In this document: positions 19,557-63,004 of the stretch, in pieces
Position numbering within the stretch: the stretch's first letter is position 1
Layout: each line of letters opens with the position of its first letter
Translations under genes and position numbers: made by a program
Assembly: GCF_002105155.1 (NCBI RefSeq)
Contig: NW_019028998.1
Coordinates: forward strand, 186,001 to 250,000
Length of the DNA stretch: 64,000 nucleotides
Direction of reading: 5' to 3'
Origin: Lobosporangium transversale
Lineage: Eukaryota
Notes under the pieces: generated by a model
Databases searched by the model: none
Seen by the model: only the letters and a program-made list of their open reading frames with translations
Told to the model about the DNA's origin: nothing

Positions 19557-19887
19557 TTTTTCGATAACAAGGACCCTCAGAGTTACAGGATTTATTATCT
19601 ACACTTTACGAACAAAATGCCCTAAAGACTATAGACGACAAACAGTTACTGCTGTGCGAATCGTTATAAATAGGTTGGCCCATTTAAGGTCGCAAATAAC
19701 GCGGTATCTAATGACCATAGCCACATCGTTGTACTGCCACAATACAACATCCTGTTCATAAATCATATCAGCATTGAGTGGCCCCTTGATCCGCTGAGAC
19801 TTGTGCCACGGCTCTACTCCCTACTTGGTCTGTTGTGCGCAAAGGTCATCCTTTAGCTGTAGTCCTTAATCATGTCGAGTCCTTTGA
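19557..19887 (-). mobile_element. Decayed 3' end of non-LTR retrotransposon (distal copy, tRNA-Trp stack)
   Basis: Short T5 tail then cGATAACAAGGACCCTCAGAG..GGATTTATTATCTACACTTTACGAACAAAATG, homologous to the 3' UTR at 41272 onward. Adjacent ttataaataggttggcccatttaagg resembles the copy at ~40612-40640. 5' limit approximate. Confidence 0.75.
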
Positions 19888-20432
19888 TTTTTTTTTTTTT
19901 TTTTTTTTTTTTGGTAAAAAGGACCCAGGGTCATGGGATTTATTTCTCACACTCTATGAACAAAATGCTCCAGAAACTATAGTCAATAAACAGTTATCAC
20001 TGCACAACCGGCGAGAGCTGCTGCATCCATGATTTCATAAACCCTGACCGCCGTGGTTGGTACTTAAAGTCCACCTTTCCGACGTGGCCTGTTGCGCAAC
20101 GCGACAAATTATGCACTATCCGTAGCCATCAGAAACTTCATTCCACCCAGCCACTCCATCACGTCCAGTTTAGTTTTCCCAAGGTAGCTGTCCCGGACTC
20201 GGTTATCCGCGATCTTGTAGATTTCTTTTACATTCAGCTTCTGTCTTTGTCTGAGGGAAGGGACAAGGAAATCATTGCTACTACGTCTGTGCTCCCCAAC
20301 ACAGTTGCCTCCTCTAGCGCGTTTGCTCGTAGCAGTGATTCCACGAGTCTTTTCCCATTCAACGGTGACTTTACACCGTTTGTTCCAGATTTCTGTACGA
20401 CCGAATTCTTCTATGGCCTTGACGAAGCGCCC
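19888..20432 (-). mobile_element. 5'-truncated non-LTR retrotransposon (3' UTR plus last ~107 codons of ORF2)
   Basis: T25 tail 19888-19912. Colinear and highly similar (about 90% by eye) to 41259-41793. Encodes GRFVKAIEEFGRTEIWNKRCKVTVEWEK...KLDVMEWLGGMKFL. Homology stops at 20432. Confidence 0.93.
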
Positions 20433-20492
20433 ATGAACGTTTGACAAAAAGTTTTTTTTTTTCACGCACTTACACAAAAAAGATAGGGATCG

Positions 20493-20533
20493 TCAGGATG
20501 ATCACGTGCGGCTCTCGCTCTTGTTTTATACCC
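20493..20533 (+). promoter_or_regulatory. Upstream element of tRNA-Trp: TCAGGATGATCACGTG (E-box/CDEI-like) plus TATA-like TTTTATACCC
   Basis: CACGTG at 20503-20508 and TATA-like element at about -39 to -30; a matching arrangement lies upstream of tRNA-Ala. Confidence 0.45.
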
Positions 20534-20562
20534 TGTTGAGGCCTTCTAGGCTCCGGTTTAAT

Positions 20563-20635
20563 GGAGGATTGGCGCAATTGGCAGCGCGTCCGTCTCCAAA
20601 GCGGAAGGTCGGGAGTTCAAGTCTCTCATTCTCCA
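20563..20635 (+). tRNA. tRNA-Trp (CCA), intronless
   Basis: Cloverleaf: acceptor GGAGGAT/ATTCTCC, D arm GCGC/GCGC, anticodon arm TCCGT-CTCCAAA-GCGGA, T arm GGGAG-TTCAAGT-CTCTC; TTTT terminator at 20642-20645. Confidence 0.95.
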
Positions 20636-20655
20636 ATTTCCTTTTATAAAATGAA

Positions 20656-21246
20656 GGATTAATCTATTTGGCAGCCCATACCAAATATAGTAATTTTTGC
20701 CTCTATTTGGCAGCCTACTTCTGGGGGCTGCCACTTAACTTCGCACTCTTGGGTGGCAGCTGGGCTGCCAAATACATTACTTTTTTTTTTTTTTTTTTTT
20801 GATAAACAGGGTCATAACATCAGTGGTAAAACAAGCAGCGTTCTGTGGATACATTGCCTTGCACAGCTAATGCCGCCGGAGGTACTAAGGGCAGCGGCGA
20901 TGACATCTTCACAAAACAGCCTTCAATGTACACGGTTAGGGAATGGTTTATTGAAGACGTCTAGGTAGTAGGTGAGACGCGTTTGCTCCGAGCGAAAACC
21001 TCTCATAGGCATTGATCTCCAAATGGCACCTCCAAAACTGTATGAGCGACCTACTTGAAAAAAAAAAAAAAATAAATAAATAAATAAATAAATAGTTAGA
21101 GGCCAAATAGCCCTGGGTAGGCTGCCAAGTAAATAATGAATGTTATTTGGCAACTGGGCTGCCAAAGAGAGTCTTGAAAGTTGATTATATTTGGCAATGG
21201 GCTGCCAAATAATATTTAGCAACTAGGCTGCCAAATAGATTAATCC
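20656..21246. mobile_element. Non-autonomous TIR DNA transposon (MITE, Mutator-like), family 1
   Basis: Perfect 21-bp TIRs GGATTAATCTATTTGGCAGCC (20656-20676 / 21226-21246); exact 9-bp TSD TAAAATGAA (20647-20655 / 21247-21255); many subterminal TATTTGGCAGCC / GGCTGCCAAATA repeats; no ORF. Confidence 0.92.
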
Positions 21247-21270
21247 TAAAATGAAATGAAAACAACTTTT

Positions 21271-22070
21271 GATGGAGTTATTTGCACGACTCCATACACA
21301 CCTTATTTACATCGCAAATGATTTTTTATTGGGATGAAGTTATTTGTACGGCCCCCGTGCAAATATCTTTTTCCTTTTTATTGCACGGGAGTGTTTTATA
21401 TGGAAATGTCGGTACCCTTAGTGCTATAGGTAAGGTCACTCATTCCAAACCCAATTGGGCTTGCTTTGTCTGGAACTACTAGCAGGCGCCGAAGAGTAAC
21501 TTATTCAAGTGGGCTTTACGCTTTCTGGCGAATGCTAATAGTTGTAGTTATGTGATGAGTGCAACAAAGCATAGTATGTGACCAATCTAGACAACCTTCA
21601 CTGAGGATAATCCTATGTTGATGGGAAGCACAGGAGCTCCTGTTGAACTTGTTAACATTCAACAAAAAAGGCTCACTGCTGTAGACCAATGTATCTTTTT
21701 GGTCATAACATCCAGCTATAATCCTATAATCCAGTCACAGTAACGGCTAGAGATGCATCAATGTATTTATGTGATCCTAATGTTTCCTGCCTATTGATGT
21801 TTTTATTGAGAGGAAGCTCACCAATTAAAGGCGGATTTTTTCTTGAAGGCTGAAATAATAACTCCTCGTGCGAATAAAAAAAATATATTAATGTGTATGG
21901 AGCTGTACAAATGTCTTTTTCCTTCTTTATTTAGTCCCAGAGTCGCATGAAGAATAACAGCATCTACTCTGGGTTACGTATGACCTTGATAAGATAAATA
22001 TTCTGGTAGTATTTGATGCTTGTGTCGTGGAAGGCTTCCTGGTAGTGGTATTAAAGACTGAATTACATAC
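21271..22070. mobile_element. Fragments of TIR element family 2 (two left ends plus internal segment)
   Basis: GATGGAGTTATTTGCACG at 21271 and GGATGAAGTTATTTGTACGGCCCCCGTGCAAATA at 21332 (identical to 45754). 21928-22070 is homologous to 47158-47325. Confidence 0.8.
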
Positions 22071-23890
22071 CTGATAAATTCCCCCTATTTTGTCGGATAT
22101 GTGGGAAGTTCTCTGAGACGGAACAACATCTGCTCTTCAGTTGTCCCAAGAAGCTGGAAGTGTGGCAGGGCGTTATGAAGAAATTTTTCGGAGAAAACGA
22201 CTGGTCAGCCTTCCTACTGGAGTCGCTATTCTATGTCAACCCGATGAGGATCAATCCACCAACAATGTGCCTGCCTTCTTGTTCTTTAGTACCATCCTGG
22301 CAACAATCCGAAAATATCGCCATATCTGTGTCCTTCAAGGAGAAGACTTTGATGTGCCACGTGTCTTAGCCGGTATCGTATTTCCCTGAGGCAGGTATGC
22401 GAAGTAAGAGGTGTTAAAAACTATAGGGAAATATTACTTTTGTACACAAATATTTGTTTTTCATTTTGCATACCAACTAACAATGCCCTGCTTGTGATAG
22501 TTCAGACTTCGAGCTACCGAATACTATGATGTTAAGCAATAACGTTTAATAGCGAAGCGACGATAATAAAATACCTGTGGTTTACTATAGTACTATTCAA
22601 TTTGATAGGAGTTATATTCCTTCACTTATTATGGGCTTCAGATGGGAAGTTGATGATCTGCAATGAAAATATATGGCTCAGCACAATATCTTCTACAAAA
22701 GCTGACACTTAGATCATAAAATTGGACCGCTACTGTCGATATCCAATATCAAAACCAAAAATGCCATATGGTTTTAACGCTTCTTACTTTGCATACCTGG
22801 CTCAAGGAGAAAGCTCGTTCTACAATACATGTATTGGAGCATCTATGGAGCAAGAGCTTTTATATAGGCGGATCGAGGCTGATAGAAAGCAATGGTTTGA
22901 TTTGTCCGTTTTGAACTTCCATAACTGAGTAAATGACTAGGTATATGTATACTTTCCTTACCAATATTACAATAACAGTGATAGACCATATCCTCCCTAG
23001 CATTTCTTCCACCAAGATCAAAAGGCATCATGCAACCACCGTCCATTGCGACGAGGCAAGTCCTCGTTGAGATATTAAGGTAAAAGTAAAAAATTAAAAC
23101 ATTCACTTAATTCTGTATCCCATTCGTTCAGTAGATATTGTTTTATTATCAATCCGCTCCAGCTAATATTACAATGTTGTGGTCGATATCAAATATTAAT
23201 AGTTAAATATTTGTCATGATTTGGCTAATATTTTAAAGTTTCTTTAATATCATGGGTCAAATCGGATCTTTTGTGCGAAATACGTGTATGGCATAACTTC
23301 GTCCGTATAAAGGGCAAAAATTTCCATTATAAATAAATGAGTTCAAGATCCTGTATTGCCTTAAAACTTTTTTTCGGCGTGTGTATTGCCGGTCAAAATA
23401 AATAACCGAAAACTAACTAAACTAACTGCTATGGAGCCAATCTGACTTCTTTATTTCTCCAAATAAAAATAACTCTTGAAGACTTACACATGATCCTAGC
23501 GTCTGCTTGGTGGCTCCCATGGCATCATTTGATGGTGTTGAGGGCTTGATTTTTATCCGGTATGCTACATGAACTTACAATGTTTAAATTCATCAACCTA
23601 TGATATAGAGTGGAAGCATTATCTTACTCCTTCCTCGCTCGCTCGCTCCTCCCCAAGTTCCATTATTGTTATCACTACCACTTGTTCCTGTATCTTCCCA
23701 TCAACCTTCTTTTCCTGAACAATTCATCTTCTATCTATTCACTTTGAACTTTTAGCCCAGTCATTAAGCAATAAAACAAACAAACAAAAAAGCTCTCTTG
23801 TTTATACTTTTGCTGCTCTTCCCTTCTTTCGTTTCTTTTCATCGCCACTGTATTTCGCTTCCTTCTTTCCCTTTCACTCGGATATTGACC

Positions 23891-33941: not shown

Positions 33942-34138
33942 TGAGTATAGCCCGTTTCATTTGGTCGCGATACCTTATATTTTTTGAATACTTTCGAGTG
34001 TATTGGCAGCCAATTAGCTCGCTTGTTACGAGTATTGTTGCAAGTCCGTCACGTAGTGAGATGCCACCAGAACAATTCAATCATCGTTTTTAGATTAAAA
34101 ATATAAGGTATCGTGACCAAATAAAATTGGCGATATCA
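33942..34138. repeat. Short imperfect inverted repeat, probable MITE relic
   Basis: ATTTGGTCGCGATACCTTATATTTTT (33959-33984) pairs with AAAAATATAAGGTATCGTGACCAAAT (34097-34122), one mismatch, with weaker extension outward. Confidence 0.6.
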
Positions 34139-41258: not shown

Positions 41259-44200
41259 TTTTTTTTTTTTTGATAACAAGGACCCTCAGGGTCATGGGAT
41301 TTATTTTCTACACTCTATGAACAAAATGCTCCAGAAACTATAGTCAATAAACAGCTATTACTGCACAAACGACAAGAGCCGCTGTATCCATGATTTCATA
41401 AACCCTGACCGCCGTGGTTGGTACTCAAAGTCCACCTTTCCGACGTGGCCTGTTGCGCAACGCGACAAATTATCCGCTATCCATAGTCATCAAAAACTTC
41501 ATTCCACCTAGCCGCTCCATCACGTCCAGTTTGGTTTTCCCAAGGTAACTGTCCCGGACTCGGTCATCCGCGATCTTGTAGATCTCTTTTACATTCAGCT
41601 TCTGTCTTTGTCTGAGGGAAGGGACAAGGAAATCATTGCTACTACGTCTGTGCTCCCCAACACAGTTGCGTCCTCTAGCGCGTTTGCTCGTAGCAGTGAT
41701 TCCACGAGCCTTTTCCCATTCAACGGTGACTTTACACCGTTTGTTCCAGATTTCTGTATGACCGAATTCCTCTATGGCCTTGACGAAGCGCCCTGCCATA
41801 TATGTAGCTATCCTTGTTGTTGTCTTGAAGCCAACTTTCCAACTCTGAGCAATGGACTTGGGCGTAAGTCCATGGTAAATGTCCTGCACAGACCAATCTG
41901 GTGTGTGCTCTCTCTCTTCCTCATCATCGCCGTTCCTATCACCATGGCGTCGTACTTCTCGCACACCATCGATATGCATCTCCAGAGTTTTCCAAATGTA
42001 GTCCTCCTCTGCCGCAGTAAAAGTTGGCTCTTTTGTCCTTGGTGGGTCTACACCTCTCTCTCTGGCCCTTTGTGCTTGCTCCTGCACTGCTTTCAACTCT
42101 TTCCTCCATGTCCTCTCCCCTATCACATTCACATTTTGGATTATCTCCTTCCACTTCTCGGCCTGAGTCTCCATCGTCCTTGGACATCTCCAGATGTGCG
42201 ATGTGTCTTCATCCTCTGTCCCACACACTCTGCAGTTGCCATCTTCATAAAGGTCCGGCCTCCAGTGTCTCATATATGACTGTGTAGGCAACATTCCATG
42301 GAGTTTCTTGATTCTGTGCGCTCGCTTTTGGCAGTCCGCTGGGCTGGTGAAGAGTCCTTTCGGTAGGTTGCTATCATGAACAATGTTCATAGTAGCTCGC
42401 CAATCAATTTTTGTCCAATCCTTAACATGCTCCTGCGTCCTGTTCTGGGCGATCCAAGTGTGATGTGTACGAGTTGTTGACTGTAACTTAAGGATCTGCC
42501 TTAAGTCATCTTCCGCTGGTACACCGTTGAACTTTGCATGGCAGTACATGTCATTATGCTCCGTTATGTTGATATCCCATAGCTCGCCATAATGTCCATG
42601 TTTGCTGCTTCGTCCGCTTCTTCGTTCCCTCTATTGCCGGCATGTCCTTTGACCCACTCGACCGTGACTTCCGATCCTTGTTGAATAAATGCGTTGTGTA
42701 TAGCTGCCCACCATACTGCATACGGTGATCTAATACGTTGTCGCAACGTGCTATCCACTCTGCCTCGGACCAATGCTCGGAATTGAGTCACAACTGCGCT
42801 GTTATCAAGTCGGATTGTCATAGGTCTGTTTCGTGGGCTGATAAGTATTCCTGCCAACAAACCAGCTAGCTCTGCCTTTGTCGAGGATGCGTTGCCTGCT
42901 ACTCTACCAGATAGCGCAGTGTAAAACTCACCCTCTTGTGTCTGGACTACCACACCAAATGCCAACTTACTCTTTCAGTGCCAATATCTTTGAGAGATCC
43001 ATCCGTATAAATGACATTACCCGGCTGGGTATTGTACCGTTCCCTTTGGCGTTGGATTTTCTCCTCGGTATTGGCACTAATGATAACTCCATTTGTGTCC
43101 CTGGCTAGGCCTCTGTTGACTTCAGGGATCACTTTTAGGCACGGTGTCTCGTTGGAATCCAGGTCGACTTTTGCTCTCCTTAGCAGAGCTTGCTCGCTCA
43201 GACCCTCATATCTCCTTGTGTTCTGGGTCCGGCGTCTCCTCGCTTCTTCGCGGGCTCGCATGCGTTCACTATGCCTTCGCTCTCGGTCCTGGTGGCGTTC
43301 TGCTCTTCTGACTATGGCATCTAACTTTGCTCTTTGTCGCCTAAGATTATGTTCTCTGGTTGCTCTGCGCGCCTCTTTCATAACAGCTCCTCGTCTCTTT
43401 TTCCGCTCCTTCTGTTGATCTAGAATCCACTTAATTCCAATTGGTGGCTCAACAGCTTGATTAGCCGGTGATACTGTCAAAGTTCTGTTCGCTGCCTCAT
43501 CTTTTATGAATTGGTTGAGTGCACGAATCGCTTCTCGATCTTCGTCTTCTGTATCCCCGTCTACCGAGCTGACATAACTACTGTCGCTGTTGCTGTCATC
43601 ATCACTGACGTCTAAGAGTGCCAGTTTCCTCCTGTTCCATTCTCTTGCATGCCTACCCACATAATCGTTGTCGAAGCAAAAGTTTTGAAGTTGGTTGAAC
43701 CAGAATGGCGAAACTTTAGGCCCTCCGTAACGGGTCCTGAATGCGTGCCATGAGATCATGTCCTCCTTATCATCCGTAAGTATTTGATCCACAAAGTATA
43801 CCATACGCTTGGTGAGCGCCTTCCATACGTGTGGTAATTCTCCGTTTAGCCATTTCCATGTCGAGAGAGCGTTGTGTGGGAGACCAAATTCGGCTGCGAT
43901 CGATAGGTCGAAAGTAATGTTACGATTCTTCATTTCTTCACAAACATTCGATATAAAGTTGTGGCGATACTTTTTGACACGATGTGGCTCCAAAGTTGGC
44001 GAGACTTCCATCTTATTCCTGTGCTGCAGCATCAGTACTCGTGTCCGACATATCCGTCCCATTACATTGCTGTCATTAAGTCGAAGCGCCAGGGTAGATA
44101 TTTGTTCTTCCGCTTGAGCGTTCGCCAAGTCTTTGATGGCATACAATCTATTGTGGTTCATAGTGCTGTTTGGCGTAGTTGATGGCATACGTGCTTTCCG

Positions 44201-45472
44201 CTTACACAGTGACATATACTTACCAGTCATCTTCTGTAGGAACGTTGGTGGCAACATTTGGGCCGAAATCCTATACAGCACCTTTGGGATGAGCACATTA
44301 TTGACAATATACGTTGTCTGCCGATCTGTCAGGGCTTTGGACCGGAGAATGTTACAGGTCGTTTCTATTTCCTGCTCCACTATTTGCTGTGTTGCTGTTG
44401 GATTTCCTGTTGCTGTGACCCAAACACCAAGAATCCGTACCGATTCATTCTTTTCCACTGGTCGGATCTCTTCTGTAGGTGTCCCAAATTTCAGCGTGCT
44501 CCTCCTATCCTGCTTGCTGTTGATACAGATGACCTGCGTTTCCTTGGCGTTCACTTCCACCCCGTTAAGAATGAAGAATGTCGTTGCAATGTCAAGTATC
44601 TCCTGCATATGTGCTTTGGAGTCCGATATCCATGTAGTATCATCCACGAAAGCAAGGCCAGTAACTGATGGTGTCCCTCTTGGTCCCTCTAGACTATATC
44701 CAGTGCTACTGTCTATAATTTCACACAGGAGTGCATCATATGCTACTCTCCATAAAAGCGGACATTCCACTCCACCTTGATCCAAACCGCACTCTGGATG
44801 ATACTCGTCAGTTGGTCCGTATTCAGTAATCACCCTGTTCACTTTGGAAATGGCGATGTTTTCACATAGGCGTATGAACTGTTCAGGGACCTGGAGCCGT
44901 CTTAGTCCGCGAGAAAGCATCCCATCGGGGGCGCAGTTGACAGAGTCGAAACACCGTTTCATGTCTTGGAGCACAATCCACTGTTCTTTCTTGAACTCTC
45001 TTGCGTCTTCCATTGCCGCTTGCAGGATATGGATTGGATCCTTAGTGGTAGTACCTTTAAGAACAGAGAAGTTTGGTCCTCGTAGAATATCGTGCCTGGC
45101 CATGATCGCGCTTAACCTATTTGTTATTACTGCAAACATTATTTTCCGTGCGTGCTCCAACAAAGCTATCGGCCTTACCTCTGCCATGTTTCCTGACCAT
45201 TCTGGAGCTTTTGGTATGCAATAGAGGAGCCCCGTCTTCCAATCCTTGGGGACGTCTTCTTGCACGATAGTGGCACTTATGATTTGGAAGAGGATAAAGA
45301 GCCCCTGCGGTCCTTGGTGTTGGATCATTTCGTTCGTAATGCCTGACACACCAGCTGCCTTGTTTTTGGGTGCATCCAGGACCACAGCTGAAAACTCATT
45401 TCTGCTTGAGTCACAACTATCTATGAACAAAGGGCTTGCCCATCCTGACCCGAGCGGAGCAGTTGAGTATAT
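41259..45472 (-). mobile_element. 5'-truncated non-LTR retrotransposon: RT + RNase H + CCHC zinc finger, poly(A) tail (proximal copy C)
   Basis: T13 tail 41259-41271 with AATAAA ~30 nt inside. RT motifs PKNKAAGVSGI, RPIALLE, QDMKRCFDSV, GLDQGGVECPLLW, AFVDD, RILGV. RNase H YTDGS, SSTKAEL, LDN, WVKGHAGNRGNEEAD. CRVC..EDTSHIWRC. No endonuclease or ORF1 present. Frame open to ~45472, so the 5' junction is approximate. Confidence 0.95.
41470..45472 (-). pseudogene. Retrotransposon ORF2, split in three by two 1-nt frameshifts
   Basis: ORFs 42947-45430, 42564-42965 and 41470-42549 join into one polyprotein if one base is added near 42963 (ERVS/xAFGVVV) and one near 42601 (EAA/KHGHYGELWDINITEHNDMYC). 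Confidence 0.85.
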
Positions 45473-45546: not shown

Positions 45547-45618
45547 GGGGTTGTAGCTCAGTGGTAGAGCGCTCGCTTTGCATGCGAGAGGCCCGGAGTT
45601 CAATCCTCCGCTGCTCCA
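45547..45618 (+). tRNA. tRNA-Ala (TGC), intronless
   Basis: Cloverleaf: acceptor GGGGTTG/CTGCTCC with the G3:U70 Ala identity pair, D arm GCTC/GAGC, anticodon arm CTCGC-TTTGCAT-GCGAG, T arm CGGAG-TTCAATC-CTCCG; T6 terminator 45626-45631. Confidence 0.95.
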
Positions 45619-45648
45619 TCGAACATTTTTTCCTCCTTGTAGGAAGGT

Positions 45649-45730
45649 GGATAAATCTATTTAGCAGCCCATATCAAATATAGTAATTTTTGCCATTATT
45701 TGGCAGCCTATTTTTTGGGCAGCCAAATAA
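45649..45730. mobile_element. Left end of TIR element family 1 (truncated)
   Basis: GGATAAATCTATTTAGCAGCCCATATCAAATATAGTAATTTTTGCC..TATTTGGCAGCCTA aligns with 20656-20717 in the same orientation; no right end seen. Confidence 0.85.
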
Positions 45731-45753: not shown

Positions 45754-47784
45754 GGATGAAGTTATTTGTACGGCCCCCGTGCAAATAAATTTTTGCTTAT
45801 AAAAAAAATTATTTGCACTGCCCCGTACACACTCTATTTACACTGCTCCCCCCGTACAAATAAAAAAAAGTTATTTGCACGGGGGGTCTTTTTTTTATTT
45901 GCACGGGGTCTCTTTTTCATCTACAAGCAGCAACGTGTATCCTACAGACTACATGATTCTGGCTTTATATAAATAAGTGGAGGTGAGTTTAGAGTAGAGA
46001 GGGGTCTGGAATTATTACTGGTGGAAGTTGCAGCGCCGTGGGAGCTGCCAAACAGCTCATTTGTGACATACAAAAATACTACCATTAGACCCATATAGCG
46101 TATACGATGATTTAAATTACCACTCACGTGGGGCAGACAAGAACCCTCTCTTTGTCCTCCTTCTTAGTTGGTGCAATGTTTTAACCTAATTGATATAACT
46201 TATTATGTAATATGGAGCTAAAGTTCAATAAATTTACCCTTTTATTAATGAGGCAATGTGGATAATCACTGAAGTTTTTGGGCAGTACAGGCTGAGGGAA
46301 AACGGCAAGAAATAAGATTGAAGACAGTGCTTCTCTTCATTACCATTTCAAGTGATTGTACAATATGAAGCTGGTCCTTTAGACGCAGTGAGCATCTACA
46401 TGTGCTGCTGAGTATGCAATACTGCGTGCTAAAGACGAACCAAGGTAAGTTGGCTATGATAATAAACTTGGAATGTAATGAGACAAAACTAAGGATTGTT
46501 GCGATTAGCAGTCATTTATATGGGTTTTTACTATAGCTAAGGTTTTTACCCTTTTTATTTAACGAAGATCCCTGGATCATAATAAAGACATCTTTTTTTC
46601 GTTCTCGCTAATTATTATGACCCTGGCATATTTCAATAACAGAAAAGAATATTTATGTCTCTTTTCTATCACTATTAGTCACGGTTATGCTATTAAAGTA
46701 TTTTAGCCACTAAGATATAGAGATATAGGTGATTGTGCACGTTCGGCTTTGAGTGCGAACTGTCACCAACTATCAAAAGACAAGTAATATCGGGTAAGAA
46801 GATAGATATTCCACAAAATAAGCTGAGGTCTACCCATTGCATTTTGATGAATTTGATAAACAGAAAGGGAAAAGAAAGAGAGTAGGTAGTAACACGGCAC
46901 GCTATACATCGTAGAAATGAGTATGATTGTATGATTGTTTGTATATCTACCGAAACAAACTACACGTTAGAGGTTCCTAATAACTGAACTCATCGTTGTG
47001 TGCTTAATAGTGTACGGAAATACCTAAGATATATGCACGCGTTAAATGAAAGAAAGCATCAGGGAACCATCCACAATCTATAACAATGCAACCAACAAAA
47101 GTGCAAAGTAAAGCTGCATAGTATATTTCAATTATAGATAGATCATTTGTAATTCTGTATTTAGTCCCAGAGTCGCATAAAGAATGCCAACATCTACTCT
47201 GAGCTACATACGACCTTGATTAGATAAATATTCTGGTCAGTATTTGATGCTTAGGCAGCGGCTCTAGATCTAAGCCTGTGTCGTGGAAGGCTTCCTGGTT
47301 ATGGTGTTTAGGGCTGAAATAAAGACCCCGTACAAATAAAAAAAAAGACCCCCGTGCAAATAATTTTTTTTTATTTGCACGGGGGGAGCGGTGTAAATAA
47401 GGTGTGTACGGGGCAGTGCAAATAGATTTTTTAAATATTTGTACGGCCCCCATGCAAATAAGAGGTGTACGGGCCCGTGCAAATAAGAGGTGTACGGGCC
47501 CGTGCAAATATCTTTTTTCAATTTGGAAAAGATTGATTGCCTTGTTGCACTCACCATGTAATTACAAATATTAGTGTTTGTCAGAAAGAGTAAAACCCAT
47601 ATGAATAAGTTGCGCTTCGGATAGAGCGACGACAATTGGACTTGAAATGAGTGACTTTGCTTACAGTACCAAGGTATCAACATAAAGAAACACCCCGTTA
47701 TATATATATATATATTTTTTTTTATTTCCATGGGAGGAACAGTGTAAATAAGGTGTGTACGGGGCCGTGCAAATAACTACATCC
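45754..47784. mobile_element. Non-autonomous long-TIR DNA element, family 2 (probably nested copies)
   Basis: Ends GGATGAAGTTATTTGTACGGCCCC (45754) and GGGGCCGTGCAAATAACTACATCC (47784). ~45800-45920 is an inverted copy of ~47316-47435. Repeated GTGCAAATA/TATTTGCAC units, including 25-bp tandem units at ~47452-47510. No TSD and no intact ORF. Confidence 0.8.
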
Positions 47785-56654: not shown

Positions 56655-59038
56655 GTTGGTTATTGCCGCGCTGTCAACAAGCTCCCGTTACCTCCTGCTT
56701 TCGTGTCCGATACCTCTACTCTTCTACAAAGACATACCCGTCCTTGCTGAAGGCTTGGAGGTAGAATGATCAACGGATGTTCGTGTACAAAATTACAAAC
56801 GCTGTGACCCGCCATCACACTGCGATAACAGAATGCTTGGCACAGAGTGCATATAACCCTTTTGGTTTAGCTATAATAGATAATTGAGGGAATGAGCAGG
56901 TAGGAGAGGGAGAGTGTCAACCAGCATTCATTAGTTATCGACAGCTTATTTATAATCCCCTAGTTCGTATCACTTCTAGGGCGGGGATATTATTAGTGCA
57001 GTTGCTTTTTGAGGTGGTATAGGCACTATGGGCTACAGCCCTTGTAGATCCAAAAGCTCTAGGTAAGCTGTTGAGGCCGTACTTCAAAACCTCACTTCCT
57101 AAGGTAGGCCATCAAGGGCCTTCAACGGTTTGGCAGATAAGTGCATCACAGTTCTGGGCGGGAATAACGTTCGGGTCTTAACAGTTTTTTGTAATTAGCA
57201 CGCCTGCTTCAAATCCATATTCTCTGCCCGTTCAGCTGTACCAGAGGAGGCATGTCGCAAGCGTATACTGCGGACCCAGCGGCCAGTAGCCAGGTTCGAT
57301 AAGGTTTTTCATTTTGCTCATGTAGAGATATTCCTTGACCCTTGCATTTTCTCTTATGTTTCTAGTTCCTTAAGGCACTTTCCGGTACGCCTAAGCGCCT
57401 GAACCCTCTTTGATGCGCTTACGGTGAATTGCCTTTTCACTAGCTTCGGTACCGCTCAGAAACAGAGCAGTATTTCAGATGCTAAAGTCCGCCTTGACTC
57501 GCCTTTGTTGGCATGGGTAATATATATCTTACCGCAAAGTGGCGTATACTTTCCGGATACTCATGAAAAAGCACGTCTGAATGTTTACACAAACACGATA
57601 TCATCAAAATTTGACCGAATCCATATCTAGGACCAGAGTTAAATTTTTGTTTAGAAATGGCTACGAACAAGGGGTGGTCCTATACATATATATTGCAAAA
57701 GGCCCCTTCAACGAAGCTTCATAGCGACGTCCTAGGCTCTTTGGTTTCATCTCCTTAGGTAGCTATATTTGGTTTATATAGCACAGGCAGGGATCGGTGA
57801 TGGAGACCATAACCTTTCCTTTGAAAAAAGTGTCCAAAGGCTATGGATACCTATCTTCTACTCGTGAATGTGCAGAGTGAATAATAAGGATACTTTCCAA
57901 CTTTCTATATGCTTTGATTAAGAAGGTTAACTCAGCCCTACTGTAATTATTTAATCCTACTATAGGCGTCAAGAAAGCTAAGACTCAAAACAGTCAATAG
58001 TGCACTCTACTGAGTCTCATTGCAATTGTCAAAAGAAAAGGAAAGATAAGCGTCGATGGTGATATCATCTATTCAATACTGAACAGTGGTATATGTGCGT
58101 GATAATCTTTTACAGTGAAATGGTGTGAGGTGCTTGGATGCCAAAGAGAGCCGCAAACCCACAATCCAACAGTCAGACGCTTTCAACGATAAATATTACA
58201 AAAACCATATTGCGCTCTGTGAACAGCCGTGATTGATCAAGGAAGAAAGTCGATTTTTTGACCAACACATGCGAAATTATCTATTATAGCTAAACCAAAA
58301 GGCATATACAATTGAAGCAAGCATTCAGCCGTTATCGCCAAATAGCATAACTGCTGCGCCAAAGTGAAGATGAGAGACGGCACGAAGACGTGAGGCAACA
58401 AGGAGAACCATATAGAGGTTAGTCCAATCGAAACGAGCACTGCGGCAGGGAAGTTGGCCCTCTCCATTGGCTACGGTCCTAATTCAAACAGCATCAATAT
58501 AACAGGACCCTCTAGAGCTGATGAAGCTGTACAGATGGAAGAAATATCAAGAGCAACTCAAGAGGTCCAAAGATGAGATGCGTCCAAAAATGCGATCCCA
58601 AAAAGGACAAAGAGGTGAAATAGGGAAGAATAAACTAGAGGATGTAGGTAGGAAAGGGCTGTCGTCAACCGATCGACGCATCTGATCACAACACTCGATA
58701 GCGGGACATTGAAGGCAATCGCTGATAAAGCCTCGAATGATCGCGTAGAGGTTGTTCGTTTTGGCTTTTGAGAGGTCATTGTTGGTGTAAGTGAGCTCCA
58801 TGTTTCCAAGGAGTGCCTAGAGTAGCAGAATTATGGTTATATGCACTCTGTGCCAAGCATTCTGTTATCGCAGTGTGATGGCGGGTCACAGCGTTTGTAA
58901 TTTTGTACACGAACATCCGTTGATCATTCTACCTCCAAGCCTTCAGCAAGGACGGGTATGTCTTTGTAGAAGAGTAGAGGTATCGGACACGAAAGCAGGA
59001 GGTAACGGGAGCTTGTTGACAGCGTGGCAATAACCAAC
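56655..59038. repeat. 204-bp near-perfect inverted repeat (56655-56858 / 58835-59038) around a 1976-bp spacer
   Basis: Base-by-base comparison shows one mismatch in 204 bp (GCCgCGCTG vs GCCaCGCTG). No TSD in the outer flanks; no long ORF inside. Confidence 0.93.
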
Positions 59039-59685: not shown

Positions 59686-62600
59686 ATGTGCAATAAAGCT
59701 GGCTCGAATCCCAACAGAGTGGTCCTTCCCACTAATGTCACCCCTTCGCATTATACTCTCACTATCACGCCCGACCTCAACGAATTCACATTCACCGGAT
59801 ATGTCGAGATTGAGTAAGTTGGTTCCAGCCTGGTCTTTTGTTTTGAATTAGGCCTGATAGAATTCCTAGCATCGTCCCACGATAATATGTTTCCATGTTC
59901 CGAAAAAGACAAGTGTTTAAACAACGGAATTTGAGTCGTGGGTCTGGAAGGACGGGCAATAGATTGAAGAAATCAACATTGATATTGATGGTGATTGCTT
60001 CACATTTTTCGAATTGGTTATTGGGAACATTTTGCTTGATGGAAAGAACACGCAAGAGAAGATATTTGTGAGCATTGGGTGATGAAGGCAACGGTGCTTC
60101 CTCAATCTTGACAACAATATTTAAAGCTTGAGTCTCTTGGTCACGTTGGTGTTTCTCCTGAGGCGCTACATCGGCTCCTTGATATAACGATCAGCAAATA
60201 TAACGCGAATATCTTTTCATTTGCGAGAATTGTTTCCTCAAATGATGACGATTAGTTAACATTGAGTTTCTTCCTCGCATTCATCGTATTGTATAACTTT
60301 AGTTTAACTATTCATGAGGCTACTAAGACCGTAAAGCTCAATACCAAGGACCTGACCATCAAAACTACTAGCATCGAGGTCGACGGAAAATCGTAAGTAT
60401 CATACACATCTGATACAATGGCAATTGAGATCAATTGGTCATAGAAAATAGATGACAGACTAAATTCCCTTACTAAAATCCAAGTATTTGTGCTTACATA
60501 TTGACAGCTACGAGCCTGTCTCTACCGATCATGACGAACACCATGACACCACTACTTTCACCTTTGATACAGACCTTTCCAAGGGCGCTGCTATCCTCCG
60601 CATCCGCTATGATGGCATTTTGAGCGATAAGATGGCTGGATTTTATCGCTCTTCCTATAAGGATGCTGAGGGTAATACGAAATACATGGGTGTTACTCAG
60701 TTTGAAGCCACTGACGCCCGTCGCGCCTTCCCTTGTTGGGACGAACCCGCTGCCAAAGCCACATACACGATCTCATTGGTTGTTCCTACTGAGTTGGTGG
60801 CACTCTCCAACATGCCTGTCTCTTCAGTTACCCAAGTTGAGCCTGAGCAGAAGACTGTTAACTTTGAAAAGACGCCCATTATGTCGACCTACGTATGATT
60901 CTTATTCAGAACTTTTGTGAGTTTATATTTACAAGGCTGTTCCTAAACTAACCTCCTAAAATGACATCTTTCAATTTTATATCTGTAGCTTGTCGCTTGG
61001 GCTGTGGGAGAATTCGAGTATATTGAGACAACTACTACCAAGCTTGAAAAGCCTGTTACATGCCGTGTTTATACTCTTCCCGGCCTGAAGGAGCAAGGCC
61101 GTTTTGCTCTCGAAATCACGCCCAAGGTTCTGGAGTATTTCTCTGAGATTTTTGGAACCGCTTATCCGTTGCCTAAGCTTGATCATCTCGCCGTTCCGGA
61201 TTTTGATGCCGGTGCAATGGAGAACTGGGGTCTTGTTACTTATCGTACTGTCGCTCTCCTCTTTGATGAAAAGACTTCAGACTTGCGTTTCAAGGAGCAA
61301 GTAGCTGTTACTGTCGCTCACGAAATCGCTCATCAGTGGTTTGGAAACTTGGTTACCATGGAATGGTGGGATCATCTATGGCTCAACGAGGGATTTGCTA
61401 CCTGGGTCGGGACATTGGCCGTTGACCACCTTTTCCCTGAGTGGGACACCTGGTCAACATTCGTTGTTGATGATATGCAGCGGGGTATCGGTTTGGATTC
61501 GCTTCGCAGCTCTCATCCTATTGAGGTCCCAGTTAACGATCCTCATGAAATTCATCAGATCTTTGATGCCATTTCTTATTCTAAGGGAGCATCTGTGATT
61601 CGTATGTTGAGTAACTGGTTGACTGTCGATGTCTTCTTAGCTGGAATTCGTCGCTATTTGAAGAAACATGAGTATGAGAATGCAACAACCGATGATCTTT
61701 GGAATGCTCTTTCCGAGGAATCAAAGATCGATGTTCGTGAATTTATGAACACTTGGACGCGTGTGATTGGTATTCCAATCTTGAATGTCACAGAAACCGA
61801 TGGCCTTGTTACGGTTGAGCAACACCGTTTCTTATCCACTAATGACGTCAAAGCTGAGGAAGATGAGACCATCTGGTGGGTTCCTCTTGGTGTTCATCCT
61901 AAGCCAGCTTCTATTGTTGACCCTAACCAGACTCTCAAGAGCCGTTCCCTTTCTTTTGAGATCCCTGAAGGCGCCTACCTATTCAACAAGCACTACAGTG
62001 GTGTTTTCCGCACCAATTACCCCCCCAGTACCATTAAGCGCATCGGCAAAGCCATCTTGGAGGGATCGGATTTAGTCGGATTGAGTGATCGTGCGGGCCT
62101 TGTTGCTGATATCGCCTCCTTGTCCAAGTCTGGTCACACTGCTACAAGCAACTTCCTAGACCTTGTACAGTACTACAAGAATGAGGAAGCTTACGTCGTA
62201 TGGGAGCTCCTTGCCAATCGTGTTGGCGAGATTGCTTCAATTTTTGCTGATGATGAGCGTATCAACCAGGGTATTAAGCACTTCCAGCGTAATTTGGTTG
62301 ATCGAATGGTCAGCAAGCTTGGATGGGAATTCCCCGAGGGCGAGGATTATCTGACCAGCCGTCTTCGAAACGTTATCTTACGTTCTGCAGGTCGCGCTGG
62401 TCACGAGGCTACTGTTGCTGAGGCAAAGCGTCGCTTTGCGTTGTTTGTTTCGGACCCGGCTCATGATTCGATCCTGCATCCCTCGATCCGCCAGACTGCT
62501 TTTGAAATTGTCCTTTCTCAAGGTGGGGAAGAGGAGTTCCGTCATGTTCTCAAGTATTTCCACGCAGCACCCAAACAAGATCAGCAAGTCATTGCTCTCT

Positions 62601-63004
62601 TAGCTCTAGGATTTGTACAGCAACCTGAGTTGATTGCTGAGGTCCAAGCCTTGGCAATTTCGGAGTCCGTCCGTCCTCAAGATATTTTCTATGTCCTTGC
62701 TGGTCTCTCCGCCAATCCTGCCTCGCGACGCCCTACTTGGGAGTGGGTCAAGGCTAACTGGACCACCCTTGCTAATCGTTACAAGTCATCAATGTCCATG
62801 CTAGGTGCTTGTGTTAAGTATCCTTTATCTCAATCCTCAGATGCGTCGCTCATCAAAGAGGTCAAAGAGTTTTTTGCTGATAAAGATACCAAGGACTTCC
62901 AGCGTGCTCTCGATCAAGCGTTGGAAGGCTTGGACATCAATTCTGCCTGGGTTGCTCGTGAGCAGCAAGGTCTTTCTGAATGGCTATCTGCTAACAACTA
63001 CTGA
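59686..63004 (+). CDS. APE2: M1 family (puromycin-sensitive/Ape2-like) aminopeptidase, four exons
   Basis: LPTNVTPSHY, GFYRSSY, TQFEATDARRAFPCWDEP, GAMENWGL, HEIAHQWFGNLVTMEWWDHLWLNEGFA (HEXXH-X18-E), FDAISYSKG. Introns ~59814-60302, 60393-60507, 60893-60988. Confidence 0.95.

Follow-up and report, generated by a model that had tools for sequence, protein, structure and literature searches.

A non-autonomous inverted-repeat element behind two tRNA genes of Lobosporangium transversale and its possible targeting by a Mutator-type transposase

The two tRNA loci and their elements

The window (the whole stretch of Lobosporangium transversale DNA that was analysed, 64,000 nucleotides) carries two tRNA genes, tRNA-Trp and tRNA-Ala. 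Both genes are intact, and insertions of one inverted-repeat family, termed A, lie 20 and 30 nt behind them, respectively. The coordinates of the genes and of the surrounding elements, including those of a sister family (B) and of a non-LTR retrotransposon (LINE), are given in Table 1.

Table 1. Features at the two tRNA loci of the window
Feature	Positions	Strand	Remarks
5'-truncated non-LTR retrotransposon	19900..20432	-	ends 130 nt upstream of tRNA-Trp; 94% identical to 41259-41793
tRNA-Trp(CCA) gene, target locus 1	20563..20635	+	Rfam RF00005, 64.1 bits; ARAGORN 20562-20636
T4 run, presumed Pol III terminator of tRNA-Trp	20642..20645	+	
Left TSD of A1, 9 bp	20647..20655	+	
A1, MITE of 591 bp with TIRs, complete but non-autonomous, of a young subfamily	20656..21246	+	
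Left 21-bp TIR of A1 and subterminal TATTTGGCAGCC-type array, both orientations	20656..20776	+	
Right subterminal array of A1	21111..21246	+	includes 21-bp TIR 21226-21246
Right TSD of A1, 9 bp	21247..21255	+	
B1a, left end and interior of older B	21270..21578	+	+34 nt of tRNA-Trp after subtraction of A1 and one TSD
B1b, second B left end inside B1a, same orientation	21332..21376	+	+96 nt after subtraction of A1
Longer 5'-truncated LINE copy, RT and RNase H	41259..45406	-	ends ~140 nt upstream of tRNA-Ala
tRNA-Ala(TGC) gene, target locus 2	45547..45618	+	ARAGORN, Rfam
T6 run, presumed Pol III terminator of tRNA-Ala	45626..45631	+	
A2, left end of older A subfamily, without right end	45649..45730	+	30 nt behind tRNA-Ala
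B2, short element of family B (168 bp) with its two ends, without visible TSD	45754..45921	+	+135 nt of tRNA-Ala
B3, 472-bp B element, reversed	47313..47784	-	about 1.7-2.2 kb behind tRNA-Ala

A1 (591 bp) is bounded by a perfect 21-bp terminal inverted repeat (TIR) and has the 9-mer TAAAATGAA on either side (20647-20655 and 21247-21255) as its target-site duplication (TSD), a 9/9 match with a chance of p = 1.5e-5 given the local composition. The spacer from the end of tRNA-Trp to the start of A1 is 20 nt, the TSD begins one base past the T4 run and A1 itself stands 10 nt after that run; the preliminary description, which had reported an element of this length with these repeats 20 nt behind tRNA-Trp and its TSD one base beyond TTTT, was borne out (T4 at 20642-20645, TSD from 20647). 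Ten matches to the TATTTGGCAGCC-type core were found inside the end arrays of A1, in both orientations, and the left and right arrays are arranged differently; these subterminal arrays are predicted to be transposase-binding sites. The interior of ~250 bp is bounded by a T tract and an A tract, and no gene-like long frame was found in it by six-frame translation. A1 was classed as a MITE on the grounds that it is short, has TIRs and a TSD, is without coding capacity and occurs in many near-identical copies. A 9-bp duplication together with TIRs is characteristic of DDE cut-and-paste transposases, and the earlier view of A1 as a non-autonomous cut-and-paste element is supported by its TIRs, its TSD and the lack of a gene. 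Single-strand folding of A1 (z = -6.3) was discarded as an extra signal because it reflects the inverted repeats only, and a SINE was ruled out by the TIRs, by the TSD round the element alone and by the two different canonical tRNAs.

The second left end of A, which had been described in the same orientation 30 nt behind tRNA-Ala (45649), was likewise confirmed. A2 is a fragment of ~83 bp (nhmmer), 88.7% identical to the left end of A1 over 71 bp; it starts 17 nt after the T6 run and has no right end, hence no TSD to be assessed. The variants 20702 T>A and 20703 C>T (A1 coordinates) are carried by A2; a subfamily with both was seen in 6-8 contigs per sequencing run, and they mark an older A subfamily. 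A1 and A2 were regarded as independent insertions because their tRNAs differ, their spacers are unrelated and their subfamilies are different. When the 64-kb window was searched sensitively with the whole element and with each of its ends, no third A copy was found. Insertion immediately after the presumed terminator, as originally claimed, holds for A1 (T4, 10 nt) and not for A2 (T6, 17 nt). Measured from the T run, the left ends of A1 and A2 stand at 10 and 17 nt; the corresponding distances are 20 and 30 nt when counted from the tRNA end and 41 and 51 nt when counted from the B box, and the terminator is not favoured as the anchor over either of the others.

Family B had been overlooked in the preliminary description. 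Its left end shares 12/15 bases with that of A and is followed by its own array of TATTTGCACGG-type repeats, and A and B are interleaved in the window and at other loci. The terminal motif common to both families has six exact matches in the 64 kb (both A1 ends, A2, B1b, B2 and B3; B1a matches with one change), all of which lie in the two tRNA-downstream tracts. Five A and B left ends are co-oriented at +20, +30, +34, +96 and +135 nt behind tRNA genes; B3, reversed and ~2 kb from tRNA-Ala, is the exception. When A1 arrived, the +34 position behind tRNA-Trp was already taken by a B left end, and A1 landed 14 nt before it. TSDs were not found for the B copies of the window. A search for Pol III genes beside B3 gave none: the 11 Rfam matches were weak and remained below the gathering score, and the models from relaxed ARAGORN runs were intron-inflated chance ones only. 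A third repeat of ~150 bp, 74% alike between its copies at 21923-22071 and 47153-47327, occurs in both tRNA-downstream tracts beside B; behind the first of these copies comes a zf-RVT-like remnant of a different LINE (22055-22366).

On the 5' side of each tRNA gene lies a LINE copy on the strand opposite to the gene, and the two copies are cut at different points of the element. Since they end 130 and ~140 nt upstream of tRNA-Trp and tRNA-Ala, respectively, the tRNA genes are used position-specifically by at least one other element; older LINE 3' ends are stacked further out, near 19557, 40522 and 40718. Among named relatives, the proteins closest to this LINE come from Mortierellaceae (65% identity); an endonuclease domain is present in some of the unnamed protein relatives, and no relative was found in viral contigs. 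No TSD was found for the LINE copies. This LINE looks like a TRE5/NLTR-type element targeting the 5' flank in a fungus, and no paper on it was found in the mostly open-access literature searched.

Other features of the window were recorded as well. An element of 2.38 kb at 56655-59038 has 204-bp inverted ends that are 99.5% identical and an internal partial end copy (58275-58338), and no TSD, long frame or nearby tRNA was seen for it; two further inverted-repeat elements, at 33946-34135 (39 bp, 87%) and 22383-22808 (60 bp, 78%), are probably old MITEs. An RNase Z-like gene (tRNA 3' processing; frames judged by eye) lies at 8216-11551 on the minus strand, 9 kb from tRNA-Trp, probably by coincidence. 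The aminopeptidase gene at 60989-63001 has a best match of 95% identity, and its best 48 of 120 listed matches fall in genera of the Mortierellaceae, by which the host is assigned to this family of fungi.

Superfamily, copy number and junctions of A

The ends of A1 both start with GGAT, and its 9-bp TSD rests on one complete copy, for which a parse with a 22-bp TIR and a 7-bp TSD also fits formally. The 21-bp/9-bp parse was preferred on three grounds: the base before GGAT in A2 is T instead of A; the terminal GG/CC is exactly where a contig of ~3-copy depth stops (X1 record 6); and GGAT is also the start of family B. The 7-bp TSD is thus disfavoured. Mutator/MULE elements have TSDs of 9-11 bp and TIRs starting with G, and Merlin elements have 8-9-bp TSDs, GG termini and an IS1595-type transposase; the six superfamilies of Mortierellomycotina DNA transposons other than MULE are not known for 9-bp duplications. 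The TSD and the GG termini of A1 fit Merlin too. Seven superfamilies are given for Mortierellomycotina in an excerpt of PMC5751038, with MULE among them and Merlin absent from that list, and the fungal MULEs Hop and Mutyl make 9-bp duplications (excerpt of PMC5014426). Based on the TSD length and on elimination among the Mortierellomycotina superfamilies, A is likely to belong to Mutator/MULE. The earlier assignment to this superfamily stands as likely: the 9-bp TSD, the G-starting TIRs and the elimination speak for it, but no transposase was found in the 64-kb window (ORF translations; 9 selected frames against Pfam). A MULE partner was defined as a DDE transposase with PF10551/PF00872 between the same TIRs.

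Copy numbers and further junctions were taken from public sequencing runs, of which 4 of the 7 listed, from 3 studies, hold more than half of the window words; these runs may come from the window's own strain and are not independent of the window. Contig depths were measured over window positions 20440-21440. In run X3, a contig of 241 bp from the A interior differs from A1 at 2/241 positions and has a depth of 597.8 (record 13), which, with single-copy contigs at a depth of ~10, corresponds to 47-73 near-identical copies. The left array gave 78-121 copies by depth in X3 and 63-124 in X4. Contig depth is an inexact copy number that gives the order of magnitude only, and at that resolution roughly 50-100 copies of A are suggested genome-wide. 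A is a young amplified family, since by depth its copies are many and near-identical.

The junction listing held 12 joint rows with letters and covered 22/141 loose ends and 32/515 pieces. It gives only joints with both sides inside the analysed stretch, and can neither find nor exclude tRNAs. Among the junctions listed, four distinct A-end joints were recognised, and all of them join A to A or B sequence: three join B-like sequence to an A left end (single-depth contigs) and in one an A right end abuts an A array. An older A left end lies 36 nt inside a B left end, co-oriented; an A right end lies ~63 nt inside an A left array, co-oriented; and a further joint matches a site within B3, with A inverted relative to B. 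A tRNA is shown at none of the four, in a table that by its construction is silent on tRNAs. These joints fit repeated use of a narrow zone and MITE-into-MITE nesting equally well. Upstream of an older A left end, a single-depth contig extends for ~390 unread bases, and upstream of another array for 3.4-5.8 kb; nothing there speaks for or against a tRNA. No empty-site contig (the A1 locus without A1) was found among the joints listed.

Several side observations came from the same runs. A short, internally deleted derivative of A (joint 20747/21148) is present in about two copies by depth. A subfamily with a different interior beside the right array (21144-21147) was seen in 4-5 contigs and offers the most promising route to a longer partner that may be autonomous. 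Run X7 looks bisulfite-converted, and one of its contigs spans the tRNA-Trp/A1 junction (window 20598-20682); as C is read as T in the tRNA-Trp end and the left TIR of this contig, the A1 left end appears to be unmethylated. Exact and near-exact A TIR patterns had 0 matches in viral contigs, metagenome contigs and prokaryote genomes. A looser two-repeat pattern matched 42 metagenome loci, of which 0/42 resemble A or B (best E 0.14) and 0/42 contain a tRNA by ARAGORN; as relatives of A or B they were rejected, being tandem or chance matches.

Association with tRNA 3' flanks and rival explanations

Both A left ends of the 64-kb window (2/2) lie within 30 nt behind tRNA genes, at both of its tRNA genes (2/2), and are co-oriented. 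Under uniform placement over 64 to 20 kb, the probability of this position for both is 1e-7 to 1e-6, and that of two or more A copies in one window is 0.004-0.012. Some 16 protein-coding genes were counted in the window (ORF count by eye), none of which is adjoined by A or B; for A, 0/~16 corresponds to p = 0.0065. These values come from a window selected for the tRNA-A pattern and from only 2 tRNA loci, of an estimated 50-100 copies, and the probability margin would seem to exceed by far any plausible look-elsewhere correction. Chance placement was rejected on the value of ~1e-6 under uniform placement. Within the window, the earlier claim that A lies at tRNA 3' flanks beyond chance was upheld by the 2/2 A left ends together with three co-oriented B left ends, and A has a real and strong local association with the tRNA 3' flanks at the two loci. 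Oriented, position-specific targeting of tRNA 3' flanks by the transposase of A, probably a Mutator-type one, is the reading that we adopt with some reserve as the probable one. Targeting is supported further by family B and by the way in which the two families are nested in each other, yet the same features supply its main rival.

According to that rival, no tether exists: the transposase prefers nucleosome-free, AT-rich DNA, harmless copies collect behind tRNA genes, and A and B nest mutually. The A/T-rich flanks, the varying distances (20, 30 and 34 nt) and the fact that 4/4 other A-end junctions among those listed join A or B sequence are in keeping with it, as are rice MITEs, of which more than 10% occur in multimers and some families self-insert (excerpt of PMC5172404). 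However, accessibility by itself gives no fixed orientation, neither A nor B is present at any of the window's Pol II genes (0/~16), and inverted-repeat elements persist away from tRNA genes (56655-59038, 33946-34135), so that intergenic DNA tolerates insertion; nesting accounts for the piles but leaves unexplained that both of them start less than 35 nt from the tRNA end. We regard an untethered preference for open DNA as unlikely, at a level that still deserves attention.

The tRNA 3' flanks might instead have been targeted by B or an older relative, with A merely homing to resident B or A ends. A1 stands 14 nt before a B left end that already occupied the +34 position at tRNA-Trp, and three single-depth contigs link B-like sequence to an A left end, as such homing would have it; at tRNA-Ala, however, the old A2 lies closest to the gene, ahead of B2, while B3 is reversed and at a great distance from tRNA-Ala, and no B TSD proves a clean insertion. 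This account is judged distinctly improbable, and even if it were true, tRNA flanks would be the target of a TIR element, though of one other than A. Coincidence, or duplication of a single ancestral locus, could be read from n = 2 in a selected window and from the order LINE - tRNA - A - B at both loci. The tRNA genes and spacers, the A subfamilies and the LINE truncation points all differ between the loci, however, and the probability of at least two copies (0.004-0.012) is joined by a further 1e-7 to 1e-6 for their placement; an origin of this kind is considered very improbable.

Proposed mechanism and comparison with known systems

Oriented targeting by the transposase of A was worked out as a mechanism from what was observed of A and B, namely the TIRs, the 9-bp duplication, the arrays, the positions, the orientation and the absence elsewhere in the window. 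The arrays of A and B would be bound by a DDE transposase supplied in trans, which, given oriented targeting, is quite probably of the MULE type. The transposase would be tethered by, or cut beside, a protein bound at the tRNA gene. The first guess for this tether is TFIIIC sitting on the B box, with an even chance within this reading, and the second is terminating Pol III. Counted from the initial G of the B-box GTTCAA, the nearest left ends (A1, A2 and B1a) come 41, 51 and 55 nt downstream, a spacing that may correspond to the 3' edge of the footprint of TFIIIC or of terminating Pol III; with three distance points only, the anchor cannot be picked. The first insertion would accordingly be placed 41-55 nt behind the B box, and the unequal left and right arrays would fix its orientation, with the left end toward the tRNA gene. 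Reuse of the same zone would then leave older copies nested and truncated and give rise to the piles of A and B. The benefit to the element would be a multicopy site at which no gene is broken.

In its fullest form, the proposal is that Mortierellaceae harbour a lineage of Mutator-type cut-and-paste transposons with a transposase able to recognise the Pol III machinery, so that any tRNA gene can receive an oriented insertion 20-35 nt behind it. Such elements would be the DNA-transposon counterpart of TRE3 and would share each tRNA gene with the 5'-side LINE, in the manner of TRE5 and TRE3 in Dictyostelium. We hold this proposal to be slightly better than evenly balanced. If true, it would mean that in eukaryotes a host transcription complex can direct a cut-and-paste transposase; downstream targeting of the TRE3 type could be studied in a simple system, and oil-producing Mortierellaceae would gain a natural tool for safe-harbour integration.

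Targeting of tRNA flanks arose many times in retrotransposons. So far, targeting behind tRNA genes has been described for retrotransposons and not for DNA transposons; in the literature searched (mostly open-access, with Repbase outside it), no DNA transposon or MITE targeted behind tRNA genes was found, and no tRNA-linked elements in Mortierellaceae were found in the mostly open-access literature. A 2022 overview (excerpt of PMC8869645) names Pokey, CryptonV and Dada as eukaryotic DNA transposons with a specific target, and all three insert within that target sequence. Dada elements are DDE DNA transposons, distantly related to MuDR, for which tRNA and snRNA genes are multicopy targets; they insert inside the gene at a recognised sequence with a 6-7-bp TSD, and Dada-U6 and Dada-U1 are without TIRs (excerpts of PMC3706591 and PMC8869645). 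A resembles them as a DNA transposon at tRNA genes, but it leaves the gene intact, is found at two kinds of tRNA and uses sites without evident shared sequence. Membership of A in Dada was ruled out by its 9-bp TSD, its perfect 21-bp TIRs and its insertion outside the gene.

Hop (Fusarium oxysporum) and Mutyl (Yarrowia lipolytica) share with A, by description only, a 9-bp duplication and TIRs, those of Mutyl being only 22 bp long (excerpt of PMC5014426); unlike A, they encode a transposase, and no tRNA preference is reported for them in that excerpt. Among bacterial elements of the Mutator family, TnGBS, ISLre2 and ISKra4 insert 15-17 bp upstream of sigma-A promoters, at a fixed distance and in an orientation set by unequal ends (excerpt of PMC3942029). 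A Mutator-type transposase, a site of the transcription machinery and unequal ends are their likenesses to A; the bacterial elements, however, are prokaryotic and target promoter-upstream positions, whereas A lies behind Pol III genes.

The closest parallels in position are retroelements of dictyostelids: TRE3 inserts 40-150 bp behind tRNA genes in the same orientation and spaced from the B box, and the LTR element Skipper-2 inserts 8-23 bp behind them, downstream tRNA insertion of retrotransposons being reported for dictyostelids and not for budding yeast in the excerpts of these sources (PMC5911963, PMC5006619). A likewise lies behind tRNA genes in a fixed orientation at 2/2 loci in the window. 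TRE3 (non-LTR) and Skipper-2 are retroelements with RT, whereas A is a fungal, non-coding TIR element with a 9-bp TSD. As with TRE5 and TRE3, the element behind each tRNA gene is paired with one on the 5' side, here a LINE on the opposite strand.
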